28,843 bases of DNA from a virus (Duplodnaviria > Caudoviricetes): the IMG/VR virus record IMGVR_UViG_3300043449_000705, positions 1-28,843 of that record. One strand, 5' to 3'. The position numbers and the translations under genes were made by a program. This document shows, piece after piece, positions 3,246 to 13,168 of the stretch (the stretch's first letter is position 1; the number at the start of each line of letters is the position of its first letter). Below the pieces are notes generated by a model. That model saw nothing but the letters and a program-made list of their open reading frames with translations. It had not been told where the DNA came from and made no database searches.

Positions 3246-6200
3246 TCAGCGCTGCTTGCTCTCTGGGCTCGCGGTGCCTGTCACCAGGCCTCGCGCCAGG
3301 TCTGCCGGGCCGGTGGGCTCGATGTTGCCGCCCGCGATGCCCGCCAGGTAACCGATGGGTCGGGCGACGCCATAGATGGGCAGGCCGGTGATCATCGTTG
3401 CAGCCGCTGCCACGTCGCGCACGGCGCGTTGCTTGTTGCCGTCCTCGACGATCGCCTTGTAGACGCTCGAGGGCGCGCTCACCGTGGACTCGATCAGCGA
3501 CACCGCAGGCGACAGGCTGAACTTGTCATCCGCTGGGTTGTCGTTGAAGCGGTTGATCACCAGCTGGCCCGCCTGGCCCACGATCGGGATCTGCGCGGTC
3601 AAGCCCTTGAGCGTGCCCAGGCCGAACACGGCCAGCAACCAGTCGTCCAGCCAGCCGTCTTTGTCCTCGTCCTCGGGGCCGCCACGAAAGACCTGGGCGA
3701 TGGCTTCCGCCACCCAGATCGGGGCCAGCAAGCCCGCGATGGCCACGTACAGCACCTTGCCTGCGCCCTTCTTCAGGCCCACCTCGTCGGCGATCTGCTT
3801 GACCGCAGTGGCGTTGGTGTTGGCCATCATGTTGAAGTAGCTCACGAACTGCGTGAACAGTCGCGCGTAGCCTGGGCCGGATTCAAAGCGGCTAATGTCC
3901 TCGGGCAGGGTGGTGCCCTGGGTCTGGCGGATCACACCGTCGGCAAAGCGCACGGCTTCTTTGTTCTCCAGCCCCTGCTCGATCGCCTGGTTGTAGGCCG
4001 CCGTCCAGATGATCGGGCTCATGGTGTTGTCGACCGCGGCCTGCATGAAATACGCGTGGCGCTGGGTCCAGGCCTGGCCACGCTCGAGCAGCGTCGGGTC
4101 GATCAGGATCTCCTCGATCGCGTCGTTCATCGCCCCGACCTCGTTCAGCATGCGGTCCTTCATGTAGGGCGAGGCCTCGGCCACGGTGGTCTTCATGGCC
4201 TTGGGGTCGGCCATGAACCGGGCGGTGGCGCTCATCATCAGGCCGGGCTTGATCTTGACGCTGGCCAGGGTGAAGCCGGTGATCTGCTGCACGGTGTTCG
4301 ACAGGTTGGCAAACATCAGCGCCATGCCCGCACGCGAGCGCGCAGCCGACAGGAAGCGCGAGATCTTGCGATCCCCGACCACGGGGGTCTCGACCACTTG
4401 GCGCGCCGAGCGGTTGAGCCAGGGGATCAGCATGCCCTCGTAGGCACCGGGGTCGATGCGGTCGAGCGCATAGCTCACGCGCTTATTGGTGAGCAGGCGG
4501 CGCACGTCGGTGACGGCACCTTGCATGTGCGAGAACAGCAGCACCTTGTCCATGTGCTGGCCCAGCGCGCGCAGGTCCAGCAGCAGCGGCTGGTTGTACT
4601 CGACGCGGCCCTTGGTGAACCCGCTCGGCGCGGACGGAAAGGCGTAGGCCATGGACTCGTTTTCACCCTCGGCCAGCTCGCGCAGCTTGGCGTCCTTGAC
4701 CAAGCGGCTGTCGGTCTGGGCGGGCACGTAGCCGCCACGGTAGGTGCCGAACGGTGTCACCACCTCGTTGGCGGTGACCTCGGCAAAGTAGCGGCCCAGC
4801 ACCTTGCGGTGGGTCTCCTGGGCCAGGGGCTTCATCTCCTCGAGCAGGTCCCACACGCCCTGGGCAAAGTCGTAGTGTGCTTTGTTGACCTTGCCCTCGG
4901 CCTGCATGCGCTGGATGAACGCGTCCCACTGGGTCGTGTCCAGGTTGCCCTCGGCGTCTTGCGTTGCCCAGCCGCGACCGAGCAAAAGCTTGCGCTTGTT
5001 GCTGTCGTTGCCGGTGTGCAGGATCGCGTGCAGCAGTTCAGCCGCGCCCGAGTCGCGGGCGTTGCCGAAGGTATAGCCGAGCTCGGGCGCTTCGATCGGG
5101 CCTGCGGGCAGCGATGGCGCGACGTTCTTGACCAGTTCGGCAAACTTCTTGCGGTAGGCCTGCTTGTCGGTGCGGTAGCGGTCGGCGGCGTCCTTGATGG
5201 GCTGGAACACCAGGCGCAGGAACGGTCCGCCGAACTTGCCGTCCAGGCGCTCGGACCATTGCTCGACGCGCGACAGGATCGCCTTGGCAAACTGCAGTTT
5301 GATGCCGCGCTCTTGCTTGTCGGTGATTGCGCCCTTCTCGCCCGGGATCGTGTCGGGAATGCCGATCTCGCCCATGCGCTCGACCAGCTGGTCGGCGGCG
5401 TCCTCGATGTCCAGTAAGTTGCCGTCGACTTCCATCTGGCGCGAGCGCTTGGCCAGCACCCACATGGCGCGCAGCTCGTCGTTCAAACCGCGCAGCTCCT
5501 CCATGGTCATCTCGACCATGGGCTTGGCGTTGAGCATCGCGCCCTGCACGCTGGGCTGCAGCGCGGCATACATGGCGGGGTCGTTCTTGGCGACGGTCTC
5601 CATGTAGGCCAGGGCGGTTTTCTCGAGACGGGGGGCGACGTCGTAGGCGGCCAGGATGGCGCGCATGGCGTTGACCACATCCGGGTCGCGGCCACGCTCG
5701 ACGACCTTTTCGTCGTTGCCCTTGGTCACGCGCTTGAAGAACTCAACGATCTTGCGCACTTCCAGCTGGGCGTCTTGCAGCGCCTTGACGGCGGCGTTGT
5801 TGAGCACCTGGTCACGCTTGGCTTGCACGGCGGCCTGGGTGTCAGCCTTGGCGGTCGCAGCCTGCCAGGCCTTGCCCGCGCGGGCCTCGGCGCTGCGGTG
5901 CTGCCAGGCGGCGCTTTTGAGGTCCTTGATGCGACGGCGCGCGGCCAGGTTCTCGGCGAACTGTTTGGCCGCGGCGGTGATCGCATTGACGGTGATGGCC
6001 CGGCCGTTGCTGGCCGTGCGCCCGGTGTCCTGGCGCGGGTTCAGCATCTCGGCCTGGGACTTCAACTCGGTGGCCAGGCTGCGGGCGCGGGCCTCGTTGT
6101 GCACGGCCTCGTTGGCGGCCGCCTCGCGCGCCTCGGGCGTGGCCAGGTCGCCGTGGCGCTCGAGCATGCGCTGGTCGGTCATGCCCTCGATCACGCTTGC

Positions 6201-9200
6201 GATCGGCTCGGCGTCGAGGATGGCGCGCACCAGCTTGTCGCCCGACTCGAAGCCGAACATGTCGGCCACCATGTCGGGGTGCAGGCCTTCCTTGCCGGTC
6301 ATCCCGCGCAGGCCGGTGAGGTCTGGGCGGGCCAGCATGGTGTCGGGGTACATCTCGGCCAGGGCCGTGGTCTGCAGGCGGTAGCCCTTCTCGGCCTTCA
6401 CGACGTCGCCGGTGGCGGGGTCGGTGGTCTCGCCCTTCTTGAGCCAGTTCATGGCCTTGTAGAGCGGTTGCTGCTCGACCTCGGCCCGCACCTCAGCCTC
6501 GACCTCTTTGCGCAGCGTCTTGGCTTCCTTCTCCAGGGCCTTGAGCACTTTGCCGCGGGCCTTGACGGTCCACTTCAGGTCACGCAGCGAGCGCGCCTGC
6601 AGCTGCTCGATCGCCTCGTTGGTGGCGTCGAAGTCGGGCAGCATGCCCGCGGCCTCTTCGGCCTGGGCGATCTGCTCGTCGGTGGCCACCAGGCGATCGA
6701 ACACCTGGCGCACTTCGTCGTTGACCTTGAGGTCGCGCGCACGCATGAACTGCGTCAGCGACTGGTAGACGTTGACCAGCCAGGAGCGGAACCGACGGAA
6801 CAGCGGCTGCAGCTCGGGGCTGGGGGCCTTGCCCTCGAACAGGTACTGCTCGAAGGACTCGGCCCAGCGCTCGTGGTAGGGGCGCTTCTGGTCCAGGGTG
6901 TAGCCGTTCCAGGTGGCCAGGTCCGGCACGCCAAACCACTTGAGCGTGGCGGCCATGTCGTCCTGGATCTGCTGGGGCGCGTTGGGCTGGCTTGACAGGT
7001 CGGCCAGCACCTCGAGGAAGAAGTGGCCAGACTCGTGCAGGAAGGTGGAGAGGTCGGCGTTCTCGTTGAGCGTCAGCAGCAGCTGGCTGGGGCTGAACGT
7101 GCCACGGGGGCCTTGCTTGTAGATGTTGGGGTCGGCCGGGTTGAAACTGCCGAAGTTTTCGACCGACTTAATCTGTGTCGGGTCGAACGCGACGAACACA
7201 TCAGAGGGCTCGCCCATGTAGGCGCTATTGCCGCCGCCGTCGTCCACCACGCGGCGGATCACCGCGCCGTCGTTGCCGTTGCGGCGCGCCTCACGCACTG
7301 CGTTGTCGGTGGTTTCGTAGCCGTCAGGCGCAGATTCAACTTTGCCACCGTTTTGGCGCGCAAACGTGTTGGCGTCGTCGAAAAGGTCGAAGTACATCGT
7401 GCCGTCGTCGGTCGACAACTGATCCCCGTTTTCGTCCAGCACCACGTACTGGCCAAGGCGCTCGCCGGTCCACATCGCGCCTTCAAAGTCGGTCTCGTAA
7501 GGGTTGCGGATGTTGACGAACAAGGGGTACACGCCGCTGGCGGCGACGCCCGCGTCATTGAATGTCAGCACCTCACCGCGTGACAGATTGGTGCCACGTC
7601 CGCGCTTTACGTAGCTGCGGGCCATCTCGCGGTTGGGTGTCAGAAAGACGCCCAGGTCACCGCGTTGGCTGCCGCTTGGGGTGTTGAACTCGGTGAAGCC
7701 GCCTTTGTCGGTGCCGTGGTAGACCACCAGGGGCTCGCCGTTTTTGTCGACCGCTTTGGAGACTTCGCCGTTGGCGTCGTTCCACACGCCGCCTTGCATG
7801 CCTGCGAAGGCTTCCCAGTCGCCGAACCAGGCCTTGAACTCAGGCGTGCGGACCAGGGCGTAGAGCTCGGGGGTGAGGTTGCTGGGCTGGCCGTTGGGGG
7901 CCAGCAGCGGGCCTTCCTGGTTTAGGACACCGTCTTGGGAGCCGACGCCAGTTCCGCCGTCTTGGCCGCCAAATCGTCGATTTTCTCGGGCATCAGCGCT
8001 TCCAGAAACTGGTTGTACTCCACCTGGTCCAGGTTCTCCTGCTGTGCCGGTTGCGGCTCTGATTGCTGCGTCGAGTTTTGCTTCATCAATGCCATCCTTA
8101 AGAAGAATCTTCTTGGCTGCGCCAGCATAATCCTGACTGGTGACTGCCAATTTTACACCCAATGCGCTCCAAAGTTCCTGTTCTGGATACCAGATTAGAG
8201 CCTGCAAAGCGGCGGGCGGGATTCGCTGCCCGTACTGCTGTTCCACTTTAGCAACAACCTGGCGCACCACATCCCGCAGCAGTTGACGCTCACCGCCCGA
8301 GCCAGGCACATCCCGTGGCTTGTCCATCGACAAAATCATGGTGTCGGCAGCGGCGACCATCTCGCTCTTGGCCCGCTTGCCAGCGTCGTAGTCGGCGCGG
8401 TTGTTTTTGAAGTCGCGCTCGTGTGCGCTCTTCACCTGGCGCGCCAGCTTCATGGCTGCGTCCAGATCGGTCTTGGCCAGCTTGACCAGGTCCTTGTCGA
8501 ACTGGCTGGAGAAGATGCCAGCGGTGGCTTTGCCGCGCACAGTCAGGCCTGCGCGAAAGCGCTCAATCTGCTTGTCGAACTTGGCCTGGTTGAATGCTGG
8601 CAGCGTACCGGACAGCCGCCCGATGGTACGCATGAACCACATGTCCATGGTCACCGGCTCAAAGTTGCCAGTCAGATTGGTGTAAAAGCCGAAGCCGATT
8701 TTCGGCCCAAATATGGAGCTGCCCAGCACCATCTCGTCCATCTTCTCGCCGCCGATCTCGTAGCCCATTTCAGTTAGCTGCTTGACGGTGTAGGGGGTTT
8801 TCAGAAACTCGATGAACGCGGTGTGGCCCATCTTCTCGATGAGCTTGTTGGCCACGGCAAAACTGTTGGCCATAGCCGCCGAGCTTTCTCCCTTGCCAAT
8901 CTCGGGGAACTTGCCTGTCTTCCTGAACTCGGCGTATTGCTCCTGGGCAAACGTCAGGTTGGTCTCGACGTTCATGCCCTGGCTGCCAATCGCGGTGGCC
9001 AGGATCAGTGCGTTGCGCGCGTTGGGGTCGGTGTCTAGTTCGGGGTACTTGACGGCCATCTGCGCAAGCATTGCGTTGATGGTTTTGTCGTACCACTGCA
9101 GCGAGTCGCCTGCGTTCTGGATTGCGGCCAGCGCCTCGGCAGAGATCAAGGTCGCCAGCTTCTCGCGGTCTGCCTCGTTCTTGATGTCGAGCACGGGCAA

Positions 9201-11603
9201 GCCGCTGGCCAGACGCCGGTTGTGCAGAAACTGAACGACCTCTGGGATGCCGTCGAAAGTCGGGGTGACAAAGGCCTGGTCCTTCGCCTGCCCCGTCATG
9301 AACTCCAACACCGTGGAATTTGTCTCTGCTTCGGTGAGGCCCAGGCCTTCAATAACGCCGCTGAATACCTGCTTGCCGTAGGGCTTGGCCATTGCGGCTT
9401 GGTTCAGGACTTGCTGCGGCTCGCGGGCCATCGCAGTGTCCTTGAACGGTTTGCTCACCGGCGCGCTGCGCGGCTTGCGTGCAAACCCGAACCGCTCGTA
9501 GAACTCAACCAGTCGGGCTTTGTCGCCGCCCAGTTGGCTGGACGCACCAAGCTCGATACGCTGCCCTGTCGCGTCGGCGTAGGCGACCAGTGCCTGCATC
9601 GCCTGCGTGCCGACACCTTGCGAGCGCTGCCCTCCTGGCACGACGATCTGTTTAAGCGTGATGACGCCGTTCTTCTCAGAAACGGAGTTGCGGATGCCAG
9701 CGGCGTCCCACTGCGCGGTGACGTCGGCCAGGGTGCCCCCGGCGTTCAACACACCGCCCTGCCCCACCTGCTTGGCTGCAACCTTCAGGCTGTAGCGCTG
9801 GTAGAGCTCGGTGGGCGTCATGCCCGTGCGGGCGGCCATGGTCGAAAAGAAGTTCGACTGCAGCGTGGCGTAAGCCTCGTTCACGTCAGCCGTGAACCGG
9901 CCGGTGCTGCTCAGTTGGCCCAAGATCTCGGTGCGCACAGCCTCGCTGCTTTGCTGCCAGGCCTGGGTGTCGGCGGCCTGCTGCATCACGCGGTCGGCTT
10001 CTTGCTGCAGGTACTGCTCGGCTTGCTTGCTGGCCTGGTCAGCATCGGCCAGGGACATGGCGTCGGGCGCGCTGCGGGCGTTCTGCAAAAACACCTGCTC
10101 GAGCGGGGTGCCCGGCAGGTAGGTCAGGGCCTCGGCCACGGGCACTTCGATTGTGCCGTTGCTGGTCGCCGCTTCCTGCAGCTGCTCGACAGTGGACGGC
10201 AGGATCTGTGCCAGCTCCTCGGCGGTGGCGGATTGCAGCAGCACTTGCGCGTCGATGTACACCGACTGGGGCGTGCCGTCGGCACCCTCGCCCATGGCGG
10301 TGACCAGTTGCTCGAATGTTTCGGGGTTGCGGTCGCGCAGCTTGGACTGCGACGCGGTTTGCAGTGCTTCGGTCAGGCGCTGGCCTTCGGTCTGGGCGCG
10401 ATCGATGGCGCTCTCGCGTTCCACCAGCTTGCGCTGCAGGGTGGCCCCGGCCTCACTCACGGCCTGGAAGCCACCGCCCATGGACAGGCCCGCCAGCAGG
10501 CCTTGCGCTGCGGCCTTGCCCACGCCCTCGCCCAGGGGGCGATCGGTGGCCCAGTTCTGCCACAGCTGTTCCTGCATGGACTGGGGCAGTTCTTCAAACA
10601 CCCCCTCAGAAATACCGGCCCCGGCGATGCGGCTGGCGAAGCCACGCTGCAGCGTCTTGGCCATCGCGCTGTCAACGCCGCGCGCGACCAGGGCAGTGTC
10701 AACGTCAGCCAGGCCCAAGCGCTGGGCGGCACGTCCACCAACAGCACCAAACAGCGCGGTGCCTGCGCCCGACATGGTCGAAGCAAACACCTGCTTTGCG
10801 GACAGCAAACCGTCGTCGGTCTCGCCGCGGATCTGTTCGGCGGATGCGCCCGCGCCCATCAGGCCCTCGCCGAACGCAGCGGCCAGCCAGGGGGCGAGCT
10901 TTGGTGCGGCGGCCAGTAGGCCACGGCCCAGCGCTGCGCCGCCCAGCATCTGCGGAGCGGACTCGCCCACGGTGGTGGCAATCGTGCTGGGGTTGGACAG
11001 CATCGCACCCAGCGTGTTGATGAAACCATCGGCCTCGCGCACGGCCTCGTTGGACTGCTGCTGGGCGGGCGAGAACAGTGTGTCGAGCAGCTTTTGCGTT
11101 TCAGCAAAACGCACGCCCGTGGCCTCGACGCCTTTACCGGCATAGCCGCCGGTCAAGATGTCGGCCAGGCCAACGAAGGCTTGAGGCAGGCCGACAGCGC
11201 CCTTCAGCGCCACGACGCCGACGTCACCCAAGGTGCCCAGGGCCGTGCGGTCCGCGCGTGCGCCCATGGTGGACTCGATCTTTTTGAGGGGTTGCACGTC
11301 GTCGTGCGCCTGGCTTGCCAGGTCTTGACGGTTGCGCATCTCGCGCAGCAGCACGGGCGATGTCTTCACCTGCTGGTCGATGTCCTCGACCATGGCCTGC
11401 ATGCGCACGTCCATGAGGTTGCGCGCGACCACGTCTTGCGGCAGGCCCATACGTTTGGACAGTTGGCTGGCTTGCGCCGCCTGGTCGGGGTTACCGGGCA
11501 CGGCCCGCTCAAGCACCGTGCGGATGGGTGGGCCTGAGTCCGGCAGAGCCGACAGCGGGTCAAATTGCGTTGCAGGCGTTGCGCTGGTCGGATCAAAAGC
11601 CAT
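3246..11603 (-). CDS. Large polyvalent internal virion/DNA-ejection protein (about 2785 aa): LPD22-like N-terminus, hydrophobic Gly/Ala-rich region, GNAT, HhH-GPD glycosylase-like, ART-PolyVal-like ADP-ribosyltransferase, HExxH zincin-like domain, long helical C-terminus
   Basis: Start placed at 11603 (TGATG overlap with the upstream stop) rather than 11618. Motifs: QRSQGVGTQAM..LVEFYERFGF (GNAT); GPKIG..VTMDMWFMR..LQALIW (HhH-GPD-like); VRTPEFKAWFGDW..GEPLVVYHGT..GVFLT..NIRNP..VAFDPTQIKS (ART-PolyVal-like); TFLHESGH..HERWAESFEQY (zincin). It occupies the position of the third ejection gene before the tail fibre. Confidence 0.88.
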   Translation of the reverse strand: MAFDPTSATPATQFDPLSALPDSGPPIRTVLERAVPGNPDQAAQASQLSKRMGLPQDVVARNLMDVRMQAMVEDIDQQVKTSPVLLREMRNRQDLASQAHDDVQPLKKIESTMGARADRTALGTLGDVGVVALKGAVGLPQAFVGLADILTGGYAGKGVEATGVRFAETQKLLDTLFSPAQQQSNEAVREADGFINTLGAMLSNPSTIATTVGESAPQMLGGAALGRGLLAAAPKLAPWLAAAFGEGLMGAGASAEQIRGETDDGLLSAKQVFASTMSGAGTALFGAVGGRAAQRLGLADVDTALVARGVDSAMAKTLQRGFASRIAGAGISEGVFEELPQSMQEQLWQNWATDRPLGEGVGKAAAQGLLAGLSMGGGFQAVSEAGATLQRKLVERESAIDRAQTEGQRLTEALQTASQSKLRDRNPETFEQLVTAMGEGADGTPQSVYIDAQVLLQSATAEELAQILPSTVEQLQEAATSNGTIEVPVAEALTYLPGTPLEQVFLQNARSAPDAMSLADADQASKQAEQYLQQEADRVMQQAADTQAWQQSSEAVRTEILGQLSSTGRFTADVNEAYATLQSNFFSTMAARTGMTPTELYQRYSLKVAAKQVGQGGVLNAGGTLADVTAQWDAAGIRNSVSEKNGVITLKQIVVPGGQRSQGVGTQAMQALVAYADATGQRIELGASSQLGGDKARLVEFYERFGFARKPRSAPVSKPFKDTAMAREPQQVLNQAAMAKPYGKQVFSGVIEGLGLTEAETNSTVLEFMTGQAKDQAFVTPTFDGIPEVVQFLHNRRLASGLPVLDIKNEADREKLATLISAEALAAIQNAGDSLQWYDKTINAMLAQMAVKYPELDTDPNARNALILATAIGSQGMNVETNLTFAQEQYAEFRKTGKFPEIGKGESSAAMANSFAVANKLIEKMGHTAFIEFLKTPYTVKQLTEMGYEIGGEKMDEMVLGSSIFGPKIGFGFYTNLTGNFEPVTMDMWFMRTIGRLSGTLPAFNQAKFDKQIERFRAGLTVRGKATAGIFSSQFDKDLVKLAKTDLDAAMKLARQVKSAHERDFKNNRADYDAGKRAKSEMVAAADTMILSMDKPRDVPGSGGERQLLRDVVRQVVAKVEQQYGQRIPPAALQALIWYPEQELWSALGVKLAVTSQDYAGAAKKILLKDGIDEAKLDAAIRAATGTAGEPGPGGVQPVSGSADARENRRFGGQDGGTGVGSQDGVLNQEGPLLAPNGQPSNLTPELYALVRTPEFKAWFGDWEAFAGMQGGVWNDANGEVSKAVDKNGEPLVVYHGTDKGGFTEFNTPSGSQRGDLGVFLTPNREMARSYVKRGRGTNLSRGEVLTFNDAGVAASGVYPLFVNIRNPYETDFEGAMWTGERLGQYVVLDENGDQLSTDDGTMYFDLFDDANTFARQNGGKVESAPDGYETTDNAVREARRNGNDGAVIRRVVDDGGGNSAYMGEPSDVFVAFDPTQIKSVENFGSFNPADPNIYKQGPRGTFSPSQLLLTLNENADLSTFLHESGHFFLEVLADLSSQPNAPQQIQDDMAATLKWFGVPDLATWNGYTLDQKRPYHERWAESFEQYLFEGKAPSPELQPLFRRFRSWLVNVYQSLTQFMRARDLKVNDEVRQVFDRLVATDEQIAQAEEAAGMLPDFDATNEAIEQLQARSLRDLKWTVKARGKVLKALEKEAKTLRKEVEAEVRAEVEQQPLYKAMNWLKKGETTDPATGDVVKAEKGYRLQTTALAEMYPDTMLARPDLTGLRGMTGKEGLHPDMVADMFGFESGDKLVRAILDAEPIASVIEGMTDQRMLERHGDLATPEAREAAANEAVHNEARARSLATELKSQAEMLNPRQDTGRTASNGRAITVNAITAAAKQFAENLAARRRIKDLKSAAWQHRSAEARAGKAWQAATAKADTQAAVQAKRDQVLNNAAVKALQDAQLEVRKIVEFFKRVTKGNDEKVVERGRDPDVVNAMRAILAAYDVAPRLEKTALAYMETVAKNDPAMYAALQPSVQGAMLNAKPMVEMTMEELRGLNDELRAMWVLAKRSRQMEVDGNLLDIEDAADQLVERMGEIGIPDTIPGEKGAITDKQERGIKLQFAKAILSRVEQWSERLDGKFGGPFLRLVFQPIKDAADRYRTDKQAYRKKFAELVKNVAPSLPAGPIEAPELGYTFGNARDSGAAELLHAILHTGNDSNKRKLLLGRGWATQDAEGNLDTTQWDAFIQRMQAEGKVNKAHYDFAQGVWDLLEEMKPLAQETHRKVLGRYFAEVTANEVVTPFGTYRGGYVPAQTDSRLVKDAKLRELAEGENESMAYAFPSAPSGFTKGRVEYNQPLLLDLRALGQHMDKVLLFSHMQGAVTDVRRLLTNKRVSYALDRIDPGAYEGMLIPWLNRSARQVVETPVVGDRKISRFLSAARSRAGMALMFANLSNTVQQITGFTLASVKIKPGLMMSATARFMADPKAMKTTVAEASPYMKDRMLNEVGAMNDAIEEILIDPTLLERGQAWTQRHAYFMQAAVDNTMSPIIWTAAYNQAIEQGLENKEAVRFADGVIRQTQGTTLPEDISRFESGPGYARLFTQFVSYFNMMANTNATAVKQIADEVGLKKGAGKVLYVAIAGLLAPIWVAEAIAQVFRGGPEDEDKDGWLDDWLLAVFGLGTLKGLTAQIPIVGQAGQLVINRFNDNPADDKFSLSPAVSLIESTVSAPSSVYKAIVEDGNKQRAVRDVAAAATMITGLPIYGVARPIGYLAGIAGGNIEPTGPADLARGLVTGTASPESKQR
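7922..8086 (-). CDS. Nested +1-frame small acidic protein (54 aa) inside the polyvalent gene; candidate antidote/inhibitor
   Basis: TAAGGA-8 nt-ATG. MKQNSTQQSEPQPAQQENLDQVEYNQFLEALMPEKIDDLAAKTAELASAPKTVS*. By hand count 43/54 codons end in G/C, against 18/55 in the host frame over the same bases. Confidence 0.65.
   Translation of the reverse strand: MKQNSTQQSEPQPAQQENLDQVEYNQFLEALMPEKIDDLAAKTAELASAPKTVS
8095..8150 (-). promoter_or_regulatory. Internal expression signals for the nested ORF: weak sigma70-like TTGGCA-N15-TATGCT, 15-bp palindrome AAGAAGA-N-TCTTCTT (8100-8114), SD TAAGGA (8100-8095)
   Basis: Locally AT-rich patch in a GC-rich gene. The palindrome and SD are directly visible. The promoter spacing (15 nt) is suboptimal, so that part is weak. 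Confidence 0.4.
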
Positions 11604-13168
11604 CAGAGGTTTTCCCATTTATCGTTGCCAAGGTACCTGGCACGGTTACCGTTTTTGTCGACGTAAGTTTTACCGGTCTCAAACTGGGCGACCGGTGGCT
11701 TGCTGGCGTTGGGACCAGGTACGAATTTGGCGTTGGCGCGATCTGCGTCAGACAGCTGCCACTTCTTGACGTCGGAGAACTGATACCACGCGTTGTCGCG
11801 GCGCATCATCAGGTCGTCGATGATGGCCTTCTGCTCTTTGTCGGTTGGGTTGCGCGAGTTCTTTTCCTTGAACTCAAACAGGCGGTTATAGAACACCTGC
11901 TCAAACTGGCCCTTTTTGTCGGCCTTCATGTCCTTGGTGTACGAGCCCACGAGCTGCGCGCTCGTCACGACGTTCTTGTCTTTGGTGATCGAGCGCTGCA
12001 AGGTGGCGATCTGCTCGAGGTCGCTGCCGCTGATCCTCTCGGTCATCGTGACCAGTTTCAGCGTGGCGAACTGGTCAGGGTTTTCGCGCGCCATGTCGTA
12101 GATGCGGGCCAACTCGTCGGGGTTGGTCTTGACCGGCTTGCCCGCAGCCAGGCGCTCGGAGCGAGTGCGCTGGGCTTCTTGCAACTGCACGCGCTCGCGG
12201 CCCGACATGGCGCTTAAGATCGCCTCGGGCGTCTTTTGCCCGGTTGCAAAGTTTTGCCAGGCCTTGTCAGCGGCGGCGTTCTCCCGCTCCTGCTCGGCCT
12301 GCTTGACCAGGGCGTAGTTGTTGCGCACCTGGTTGAGCGTCTTTTCGCGGCGCTGCGGGTCGGTGATCTTGGCGGCCTCGGCCAGCTGCTCGCTCAGAGG
12401 TTTGCCCGCCATGGCGGCGGCCGTCTGCGTGGCGAACTGGTTGTCGGCCTCACCTTTGAGCACTTGCTCAACGCGGGCCTGGTTCTGGAACCCGACCTCG
12501 GCCTTGTTGGCGTCGTAGTAGGCCTGCGCGGCCTGGGCGTTGTTTTCGGCCAGCTTGCTGATCTGCGCCAAGTGCATCGCCGACAGGTTTTTGCCCGCCT
12601 CGGCCTGCACTTGCTCGGTGGTCCAGCCCTTGCGCGCGCCGAGCACGGCGGCCTTGTCGCGGATCTGCACGGCGGTGCTCGCCACATCGCCCGAGGTCAC
12701 CCCGAACTGGATCGTGGTCGCCACGTCGGCGCTGTAGGTCTCATCGGCGTGGCGCTCTTTCTCGGCCATGGTGAACGTCTGCACGTTGCCCAGGGCGGCG
12801 GTCTGCTTGGCGCGCAGGCTTTGCGAGGCGAGCGACTTTGCGCGGGGGTCAAGCTCCTTGCCCGCGTTCTCGGCGGCGCTCTTCCACCAGGCCTCGGCGG
12901 CGGGCACGTAGCCGTCGGCGTTGGCCCCGCGGTATTTGTTGCGGTTTTCCGCGTCCCACTTCATCCACTCGCTGGTGATCTGCGACTCAGCGGTGGCAGC
13001 CTTGGCCTGCGCGTCGCGCAGGTCGATGCGGTCGGCAACCTCGGCCACTTGGCCCAGGCCTTGCGCGAGCGCGCGTGCTCCCGAGCTGACGTCGGGCGTT
13101 TGCTGCATGACAGGCTGCAGCGCCTGGGTGCGGAGTTGGCGGTCGCCGTAGACAGGAACCTGTGGCAT
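11603..13168 (-). CDS. Internal virion/ejection protein (T7 gp15-position analogue), 521 aa
   Basis: Helical, Ala/Gln-rich, with an MPQVPVY N-terminus. Lies between the gp14-like gene and the giant ejection gene and abuts both. No recognisable lysozyme motif. Confidence 0.7.
   Translation of the reverse strand: MPQVPVYGDRQLRTQALQPVMQQTPDVSSGARALAQGLGQVAEVADRIDLRDAQAKAATAESQITSEWMKWDAENRNKYRGANADGYVPAAEAWWKSAAENAGKELDPRAKSLASQSLRAKQTAALGNVQTFTMAEKERHADETYSADVATTIQFGVTSGDVASTAVQIRDKAAVLGARKGWTTEQVQAEAGKNLSAMHLAQISKLAENNAQAAQAYYDANKAEVGFQNQARVEQVLKGEADNQFATQTAAAMAGKPLSEQLAEAAKITDPQRREKTLNQVRNNYALVKQAEQERENAAADKAWQNFATGQKTPEAILSAMSGRERVQLQEAQRTRSERLAAGKPVKTNPDELARIYDMARENPDQFATLKLVTMTERISGSDLEQIATLQRSITKDKNVVTSAQLVGSYTKDMKADKKGQFEQVFYNRLFEFKEKNSRNPTDKEQKAIIDDLMMRRDNAWYQFSDVKKWQLSDADRANAKFVPGPNASKPPVAQFETGKTYVDKNGNRARYLGNDKWENL

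Follow-up and report, generated by a model that had tools for sequence, protein, structure and literature searches.

The window analysed here, the whole 28,843-nucleotide (28.8-kb) stretch of the viral contig IMGVR_UViG_3300043449_000705, encodes on its minus strand a giant polyvalent protein of 2790 amino acids (3246..11618; open reading frame (ORF) list, Pfam and PHROGs), and within a linker of this protein lies a small second ORF in the +1 frame (7922..8086, minus strand; 54 codons plus TAA). From comparisons among relatives, we consider it highly probable that the nested ORF is a real functional overlapping gene kept by selection. It sits directly behind an all-alpha domain of 440 residues with a predicted HhH-GPD-like fold, hereafter domain X (8087..9416, minus strand; residues 735-1177). 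The best explanation overall, to which we give a rough probability of 0.4, is a selected overlapping gene whose product likely binds and restrains domain X. A first-pass annotation, made by a model from the letters of the DNA, had proposed a hidden gene at this position that serves as a built-in antidote to the domain in front of it. That the gene is real and no chance ORF is borne out by its presence at 74 of 79 loci, by its 59 distinct versions and by selection in the nested frame.

In the window, the nested ORF translates as MKQNSTQQ...APKTVS* (54 aa), and its place in the +1 frame of 3246..11618, inside the polyprotein linker, was confirmed by translation and by the ORF list; its assignment as a gene draws in addition on homologues and selection. 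The start ATG (8084..8086, minus strand) is formed from a host GAT (Asp) codon and the G of GAA, and an AAGGA Shine-Dalgarno (SD)-like element, supplied by host K-D-G codons, lies 8 nt ahead of it (8095..8099, minus strand), as had been claimed. The TAA stop (7922..7924, minus strand) consists of the host Leu codon CTA and the A of AAC, and does fall within the host codons for the VLNQ junction (7917-7928). The count of G/C-ending codons was also reproduced, with 43 of 54 in the nested frame versus 18 of 55 in the host frame over the same bases. The GC content at third codon positions (GC3) of the host frame drops below 0.5 in 67 of 2736 sliding windows along the 8.4-kb gene, all of them within 8237-8039. 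Directly upstream of the nested start is an AT-richer, weakly folding stretch (8087..8240, minus strand) with a GC content of 0.53 versus 0.65 for the gene, in agreement with the AT-rich patch described earlier. The weak promoter-like pair reported there did not hold up: a consensus scan of 7700-8500 returned 0 sigma-70-like promoters. The predicted folding energy of the 60 nt around the ATG is -6.7 kcal/mol, compared with -16.7 +/- 4.7 kcal/mol in other folding windows. A 15-bp palindrome (AAGAAGATTCTTCTT; arms AAGAAGA and TCTTCTT around a single T, 7+1+7) abuts the SD element at 8100..8114 (minus strand) and was verified by a script check, after an inverted-repeat search had given one imperfect pair at 8216-8277 instead. 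Since it is kept in the closest relative (L001) alone, the palindrome is probably incidental.

A blastn search with 7600-8700 against the phage collection gave no match. Relatives came from a scan of viral contigs in which the query was the part of the host protein surrounding the site; the best 80 of 279 confirmed relatives were analysed, and domain X is present in 79. A homologous +1 ORF, with its ATG at the aligned place and mostly 47-63 codons long, is found at 74 of these 79 viral loci. The five misses comprise three loci that end before or inside the nested ORF (L039, L044 and L047), one without an ATG whose +1 frame nevertheless matches the family profile at 4e-14 (L058), and one with a host identity of 29% and no nested homologue (L078). 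The window itself matches the nested-family profile at 1.5e-14, and three more contigs from metagenome-assembled genomes (MAGs) also carry the nested ORF. The 59 distinct nucleotide versions fall into 16 clusters at 50% amino acid identity and span GC contents of 0.39-0.68. A T-ending host codon (GAT, AAT or TAT) supplies the start in 53 of 53 distinct versions, against a background frequency of 0.36 for NAT among NAY codons, and the ATG is kept through 7 host dipeptides (DG, NE, DE, YG, DA, YD and DD), including a one-codon shift (TAT-GGx). An SD-like tetramer lies at positions -17 to -5 in 52 of 53 distinct relatives. In all 50 loci compared, the RNA around the ATG folds more weakly than RNA elsewhere in the locus (mean z +1.49). 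These data support the claim that the ORF has start signals of its own, and an SD and a +1 ORF are conserved behind homologous modules.

The nested peptides align from their Met (MKQ.STQQ or MEN..AQQ) and have in common a core of the form QQPNLDQ-D/E-x-H/F/Y-D-K-W-L ... S/T-P-E-Q-L ... L-A ... L ... L-A-R-S-K. Two positions, M1 and a Gln, never vary, and an Asn is retained in at least 90%. The length of the linker is near-constant, 53 of 59 versions being gap-free over 34 codons. Where domain X is more distant (29-36% identity), a +1 ORF accompanies it too, on a chromosome of Pararhizobium and one of Mesorhizobium, in Limnohabitans phage DC33 and in an uncultured podovirus. On the Pararhizobium chromosome (L085), where domain X is C-terminal, a 658-aa gene precedes a 75-codon +1 ORF, and the two overlap over the last 122 nt of the gene. 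In the cultured phage DC33, which infects Limnohabitans sp. DCL3, a nested ORF of 70 codons (about 4110-4320 of L089) is present and unannotated, and the prediction that gene callers would miss it is mostly correct. One database protein of 116 aa (P0116) begins as a nested peptide and continues as host-frame sequence (..RRKKVVFEVAPDPNN..), a fusion that is probably due to an indel in the assembly.

Because the 59 versions taken together are saturated (50% nucleotide identity), an entropy analysis was replaced by close independent pairs, and selection was assessed on 18 phylogenetically independent pairs with Nei-Gojobori counts rather than a tree-based overlap model. Nested codon positions 1, 2 and 3 show 70, 71 and 116 differences (chi-square p 3e-4), the peak thus coinciding with host position 1; for domain X, further upstream, the counts at the three host positions are 282, 160 and 1139. 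The ratio of nonsynonymous to synonymous differences per site (pN/pS) in the nested frame is 0.43 (95% bootstrap confidence interval (CI) 0.31-0.54), with 0.28 for the first 42 codons, the core, and 0.76 for the tail. The host frame has a pN/pS of 0.97 in the overlap (CI 0.74-1.30), and the nested value was below the host value in all of 5000 bootstraps. The upstream control gave 0.12 for the host frame and 1.80 for the +1 frame, as expected. Synonymous differences per site (pS) in the host frame drop fourfold, from 0.314 upstream to 0.079 in the overlap, and at the nucleotide level the linker has diverged no more than the enzyme domain. Frame-specific selection is thus purifying in the nested frame, with the host frame close to 1 and synonymous change in the host suppressed. 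Such codon periodicity is not expected from an RNA element or from constraint on the host protein only, which is why we take the gene to be real. Among close strains, all 13 changes in domain X are synonymous, and 7 changes in the overlap alter both frames, affecting 5 host and 4 nested residues and leaving the first 28 nested codons unchanged; these numbers are too few to weigh.

The window peptide is predicted to have a disordered polar N-terminus and one helix at residues 19-48 (predicted local distance difference test (pLDDT) score 73), consistent with the amphipathic helix suggested by the first-pass annotation. It carries the core motif N-L-D-Q-x-E-Y-N, and its one long amphipathic helix has hydrophobic residues at heptad-like positions, which gives it the appearance of a protein that may fold upon binding a partner or assemble into a coiled coil. 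The product had been described as acidic. This is true of the window copy (9 D/E, 4 K, no R; net charge -5) and not of the family, which has a median charge of 0 and a range of -10 to +6. A profile search among 1.84 billion representatives yielded 115 clusters (50% identity) at E<=1e-3. In a word-indexed collection, 21 proteins match the nested family, all unnamed or called "hypothetical protein"; two of them are NCBI annotations of MAGs. These proteins reveal a modular small-protein family in which an N-terminal motif A (MPVRKMT.EE.E..FG.G.VIFG), the core and C-terminal motifs occur in varying combinations (P0029, P0047, P0048, P0057, P0058, P0063, P0078, P0084 and others). The C-terminal motifs are PLDLxNLPFDPA, EEDGIRAEA.RRL and, at the very C-terminus, ..VGSFtDE.lEMArALGF, and some of those found at the ends of separately called small proteins recur at the ends of the longer nested ORFs in L037, L038 and L040. 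The counts relating the C-terminal ..ALGF motif to the absence of domain Y (3, 0, 14 and 23) are too few to interpret. The C-terminus of P0029 (..VGSF.DE..EMAKALGF) resembles a host-frame segment of L008 (4171-4269; QVGSYLDDTNPSF...VEVAKTLGF) at an E value of about 1, a likeness that may be due to chance. Mimicry of a domain X segment by the peptide was considered and rejected, given weak tblastn matches (E 0.18-6) and an hhalign probability of 0.4%.

The description of the upstream domain as DNA-glycosylase-like is supported at the level of the fold. An AlphaFold2 model of domain X built from 41 sequences has a pLDDT of 88.7 and a predicted template modelling score of 0.80. Foldseek with this model returned nothing at E<=1e-3. 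In a wide VIA-align search, ranks 1-23 are all HhH-GPD glycosylases or their relatives, with Z scores from 10.3 to 5.9. The best match is the Thermotoga 8-oxoguanine glycosylase 3n0u_A (Z 10.3, root mean square deviation 3.9, 195 of 209 residues aligned); QNG1/DUF2419, NTHL1, MagIII, ROS1, endonuclease III, MutY, AGOG, OGG1, AlkA and gp46 of phage PaMx11 are among the others. In the HhH-GPD signature, a Gly/Pro-rich loop and a conserved Asp come after a helix-hairpin-helix. A candidate signature of this kind is present in domain X (8643..8711, minus strand), with an FGPKIGFGF hairpin (8685-8711), a Gly/Pro loop and an invariant Asp 992 (8643-8645). Invariant in the 41 sequences are G971, P972, K973, G975, G977, G984, P988 and D992 (alignment positions 237-258), placed between model helices 232-236 and 240-248, then in a loop that leads to helix 259-269. 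Asp 992 may therefore be equivalent to the catalytic Asp of HhH-GPD enzymes. Domain X resembles the superfamily in its fold, over model residues of about 80-430, and may share with it the pattern of helix-hairpin-helix, Gly/Pro loop and invariant Asp. It differs in having no sequence-profile match, in an inserted four-helix element (275-365; structural ranks 24-50) and in being embedded in a virion polyprotein. To judge from the model, domain X may have glycosylase activity and be toxic; base modification as in PaMx11 gp46 could be as possible as base excision.

Domain X and the nested ORF behave as one cassette, as had been proposed. In relatives the flanks of domain X vary, with Zeta_toxin, Acb1, ART-PolyVal or LPD38 as neighbours, or the protein ending about 120 codons later, and whatever the flanks, the nested ORF is always directly behind domain X. 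A module boundary was located at position 7935: in three other runs, contigs agree with the window over 8400-7935 and are unlike it beyond, so that the breakpoint is 11 nt upstream of the nested stop codon. In these related strains a TAG two codons past 7935 ends the nested frame, as judged by eye. Beyond the breakpoint, the host frame of the diverging contigs resembles, also by eye, the ...QGPRGT... segment of the window, some 20 residues upstream of the HESGH zincin motif of the polyvalent protein (7023-7037, minus strand). Since the contigs thus run from the end of the nested ORF into the segment preceding the zincin, these strains appear to lack the ADP-ribosyltransferase module ART-PolyVal, which in the window is the next host-frame module downstream (7155..7748, minus strand; Pfam 1.8e-19). 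The tetrapeptide VLNQ occurs at both borders of the domain X module (9399-9410 and 7917-7928 in the window). Short motifs of this kind, common to the junctions, may direct the exchange of modules or may be sites of cleavage.

The favoured reading would work as follows. Ribosomes would start on the nested ORF at its own SD and ATG, using the mRNA of the polyvalent protein; its product of about 55 residues, predicted to be helical, would bind the adjoining HhH-GPD-like domain X; and the bound peptide would hold domain X in check in the producing cell. We put the odds that domain X is the partner of the peptide at roughly even. The narrower claim, that the peptide is specifically an inhibitor or antidote of domain X, we regard as rather doubtful. 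Counted in its favour are the immunity-like position behind an enzyme-like domain, the strict co-inheritance with domain X and the predicted co-expression of both from one mRNA. If the claim were true, a cis-encoded inhibitor would keep a DNA-acting warhead silent in the producing cell, and the case would be the first of its kind in two respects, as a toxin-antidote pair overprinted on a polyprotein and as a protein that inhibits an HhH-GPD-type enzyme. A more general proposal, which we think somewhat unlikely in its entirety, is that polyvalent ejection proteins hide small modular +1 proteins in linkers that read across older genes, with the member at the glycosylase module being a cis-encoded inhibitor. 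The partial overlap in the Pararhizobium copy (L085) suggests an older two-gene order, which polyvalent proteins may later have read across, and because the small frame is constrained and the frame of the long ORF is neutral, the linker may be a younger reading across an older small gene.

Several observations weigh against a peptide that restrains domain X. Physical overlap alone forces the co-inheritance of the nested ORF with domain X. Domain X has no match in Pfam (0 families at E<=10, hence no HhH-GPD hit), NCBIfam or PADLOC, and against the sequences of the PDB phmmer was blank and the profile gave 0 matches at E<=10; furthermore, the best Z of 10.3 is, according to the tool's own note, in a range where helical models may match by arrangement alone. 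The peptide for its part has 0 matches in Pfam, PHROGs (35 members searched), NCBIfam, PADLOC and the ESM Atlas, and no antitoxin or immunity family was hit. Its unconserved net charge argues against a DNA-mimic mode of action. The ART, GNAT and zincin modules of the same protein have no nested ORF, and the sole GC3 dip is the one described here. The window stretch is found in no sequencing run recorded as RNA; two runs guessed to be RNA contain small shares (0.14 and 0.07). Motif A and the core motif occur fused in database proteins, whose genomic context gave no useful clue, and a second +1 ORF that starts with motif A, 48-81 codons long and preceded by an AGGAG-like SD, occurs about 780 nt downstream at 19 loci (L002-L004, L006-L008, L010, L012, L031, L035, L036, L042, L043, L046, L050, L051, L065, L081 and L083; for example L008:4592-4789). 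This second ORF lies behind a different conserved host domain, domain Y (VVFEVAPDPNN ... AFPEKxEYDYA), has a pN/pS of 0.69 in the nested frame versus 0.80 in the host frame, and is absent from the window.

The modularity of the motif A/core family and the second ORF behind another domain may point to a shared adaptor or docking role instead of a module-specific antidote, and agree with a general adaptor no less than with a specific antidote. On this account the gene is real, and its product is a modular adaptor or docking protein, or an independent effector directed at the host, placed in a linker that tolerates a second frame. Such a protein might be a helper of the giant ejection protein, in its folding, packaging or release, or it might act on a target in the host. 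We see this as a serious possibility, somewhat short of probable. It would fit the short motifs (A, core B and C-terminal) combined in different orders, a peptide that is mostly disordered apart from one heptad-like helix and variable in charge, and a host-frame linker free to vary (pN/pS 0.97). It sits less well with the fixed position of the core-B ORF, which is a single-copy feature of each locus and was always seen immediately after domain X; none of the 79 sources with a profile hit has a second copy, and the pattern holds even where domain X ends the 658-aa protein of a bacterial genome. Moreover, domain X is the only partner suggested by the analysis, and a product that binds and restrains it is the explanation that we prefer.

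The remaining adverse points concern the gene itself. From the window sequence alone, the nested ORF could be chance: in a null model that kept the host protein and drew synonymous codons anew according to the codon usage of the gene, an open +1 frame was obtained in 0.73 of the trials, the ATG in 0.11 and both in 0.074. Few residues of the host linker have T at codon position 2, and +1 stops are therefore rare anyway. The third position of nested codons is the first position of host codons, which is G/C-rich in a linker of Gly, Ala and Pro, and the GC3 contrast is therefore partly a by-product. In relatives with a GC content below 0.50, the nested frame still has a GC3 of 0.71 compared with 0.41 for their own GC3, and we rejected the contrast as sufficient proof of the frame. 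One might thus argue that there is no second gene and that the +1 frame, the ATG and the SD are by-products of a hydrophilic linker rich in Gly, Ala and Pro and of a conserved host motif K-E-G-(F/Y)-(D/N)-E. In synonymous recodings across the loci, the median frequencies are 0.23 for an open +1 frame, 0.38 for the ATG and 0.106 for both, and the probability of an open frame estimated from +1 stop frequencies is 0.001-0.24 per locus. In addition, among the +1 ATG-ORFs of a version the nested one ranks first in length in just 16 of 59 cases, and the SD and ATG bases are within conserved host codons. Nevertheless, we judge this account improbable. The frame is open and the ATG present in 53 of 53 versions from 16 groups, a joint chance far below 1e-10 even counting groups only, and the start persists through the changes of host dipeptide, including the shift by one codon. 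Neither the peak of substitutions at host position 1, nor the fourfold lower variability of host synonymous sites than upstream, nor the pN/pS of 0.28 in the nested core is accounted for by host coding, and the linker is near-constant in length and no more divergent than the enzyme domain. Very improbable is a programmed +1 frameshift yielding a truncated polyprotein with the nested peptide as its C-terminal tail, for although frameshift products are common in phage structural genes and the +1 stop is at the module border, a +1 stop precedes the ATG by 1-25 codons in most loci (e.g. frame open from 3800, ATG at 3815), the conserved ATG and SD would not be needed, peptide similarity starts at the Met, and by eye the aligned upstream 20 nt contain no common slippery run.

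Embedded spanin genes such as Rz1 within Rz of lambda and 18.7 within 18.5 of T7 have their own ribosome-binding site and start, are read in the +1 frame of the same mRNA and are often missed. The nested ORF is likewise small, wholly inside a longer phage gene and in the +1 frame. However, Rz1-type proteins are secreted lipoproteins with a lipobox Cys, and no signal-peptide-like feature was seen in the nested peptides; the host gene here encodes a polyvalent ejection protein, and its frame is neutral in the linker. With 0 Cys among the 59 versions there is no lipobox, and an embedded o-spanin of the Rz1 type was ruled out. The position of the nested gene directly behind an enzymatic-type domain, and its inheritance as a cassette across architectures, recall toxin-immunity pairs and type II toxin-antitoxin systems, with the differences that it does not come after the ORF of that domain but is overprinted on it, and that it matches no antitoxin or immunity family. 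We are aware of no protein that inhibits an HhH-GPD enzyme, and our literature searches for one found none. Ugi of phages PBS1/2 and p56 of phi29 are acidic mimics of DNA that act on an enzyme of another fold, the host uracil-DNA glycosylase; the nested family has a median charge of 0 and one predicted helix, and the nested peptide would act on the phage's own HhH-GPD-like domain. Like the nested peptide, Ugi and p56 are small and phage-encoded, with p56 similar to it in size, and they block a DNA glycosylase (PMC3711442, PMC3239192). A DNA mimic of the Ugi/p56 kind is not supported, as the acidic surface of the window copy (-5) is not conserved in the family. Viral overprinted accessory genes, as covered in the available part of PMC8227390, are also short, largely disordered proteins in an alternative frame; here it is the small frame that is constrained and the long ORF's frame that is neutral. 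The accessible part of the work of Iyer et al. 2017 on polyvalent proteins (PMC5512222) contains none of the terms "overlap", "frameshift" or "glycosylase". A full-text search, in which subscription journals are thinly covered, found no report of an embedded gene in a polyvalent or ejection protein and none of a glycosylase-like module there.

Polyvalent proteins are multi-warhead proteins delivered with phage or plasmid DNA, and to the question of how the producing cell survives them the nested gene offers a concrete candidate answer. Their linkers can be dual-coding, and for such phages both the maps of domains and the counts of genes are therefore incomplete. The small-protein family, with its 115 clusters, is nameless in the searched libraries and mostly missed by gene callers. 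If the model is right, the counter-defence repertoire of phages would gain with domain X an undescribed branch of the DNA-glycosylase fold that is an orphan in sequence. As the cultured Limnohabitans phage DC33 carries the arrangement, the question is accessible at the bench.

The contig has a CheckV completeness of about 65%, and the DNA runs that contain the window are freshwater or lake metagenomes. According to PHROGs annotation, its minus strand encodes a podovirus-type structural module with small and large terminase subunits, portal, protease, major head protein and tail tube proteins, as well as two small internal virion proteins, a 521-aa match to an endolysin family and a tail fibre. 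The neighbours of the polyvalent protein gene are internal virion proteins, tail proteins and the tail fibre, and the gene itself stands between the internal virion proteins and the fibre. This is, we presume, the position of the large internal (ejection) core protein in T7-like phages, and by this analogy of gene order the polyvalent protein may have an ejection role. The giant protein reported by the first-pass annotation is there, with a length of 2790 aa in the ORF list instead of 2785. It contains the Pfam domains LPD22 (residues 40-119), GNAT (649-715) and ART-PolyVal (1291-1488), and its C-terminal 1280 residues (1504-2785) match phrog_9880. Residues 177-560 (window 10047-11090) match phrog_2206, the N-terminal region of virion RNA polymerases, at 1.4e-16, and may be an encapsidation or ejection region in common with N4-type virion RNA polymerases. 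In relatives, an Acb1 domain, directed against the cyclic-oligonucleotide-based antiphage signalling system (CBASS), was found upstream of domain X in L013 (host residues 676-816; 6e-27), as was a Zeta_toxin domain in L007 (host residues 597-675; 1.9e-12). These domains support a role for such polyvalent proteins as carriers of counter-defence cargo. Finally, the DC33 record (L089, PQ492659.1) bears the taxonomy line Inoviridae; with a 39-kb genome and a 3126-aa polyvalent protein of podovirus type, this label looks wrong.

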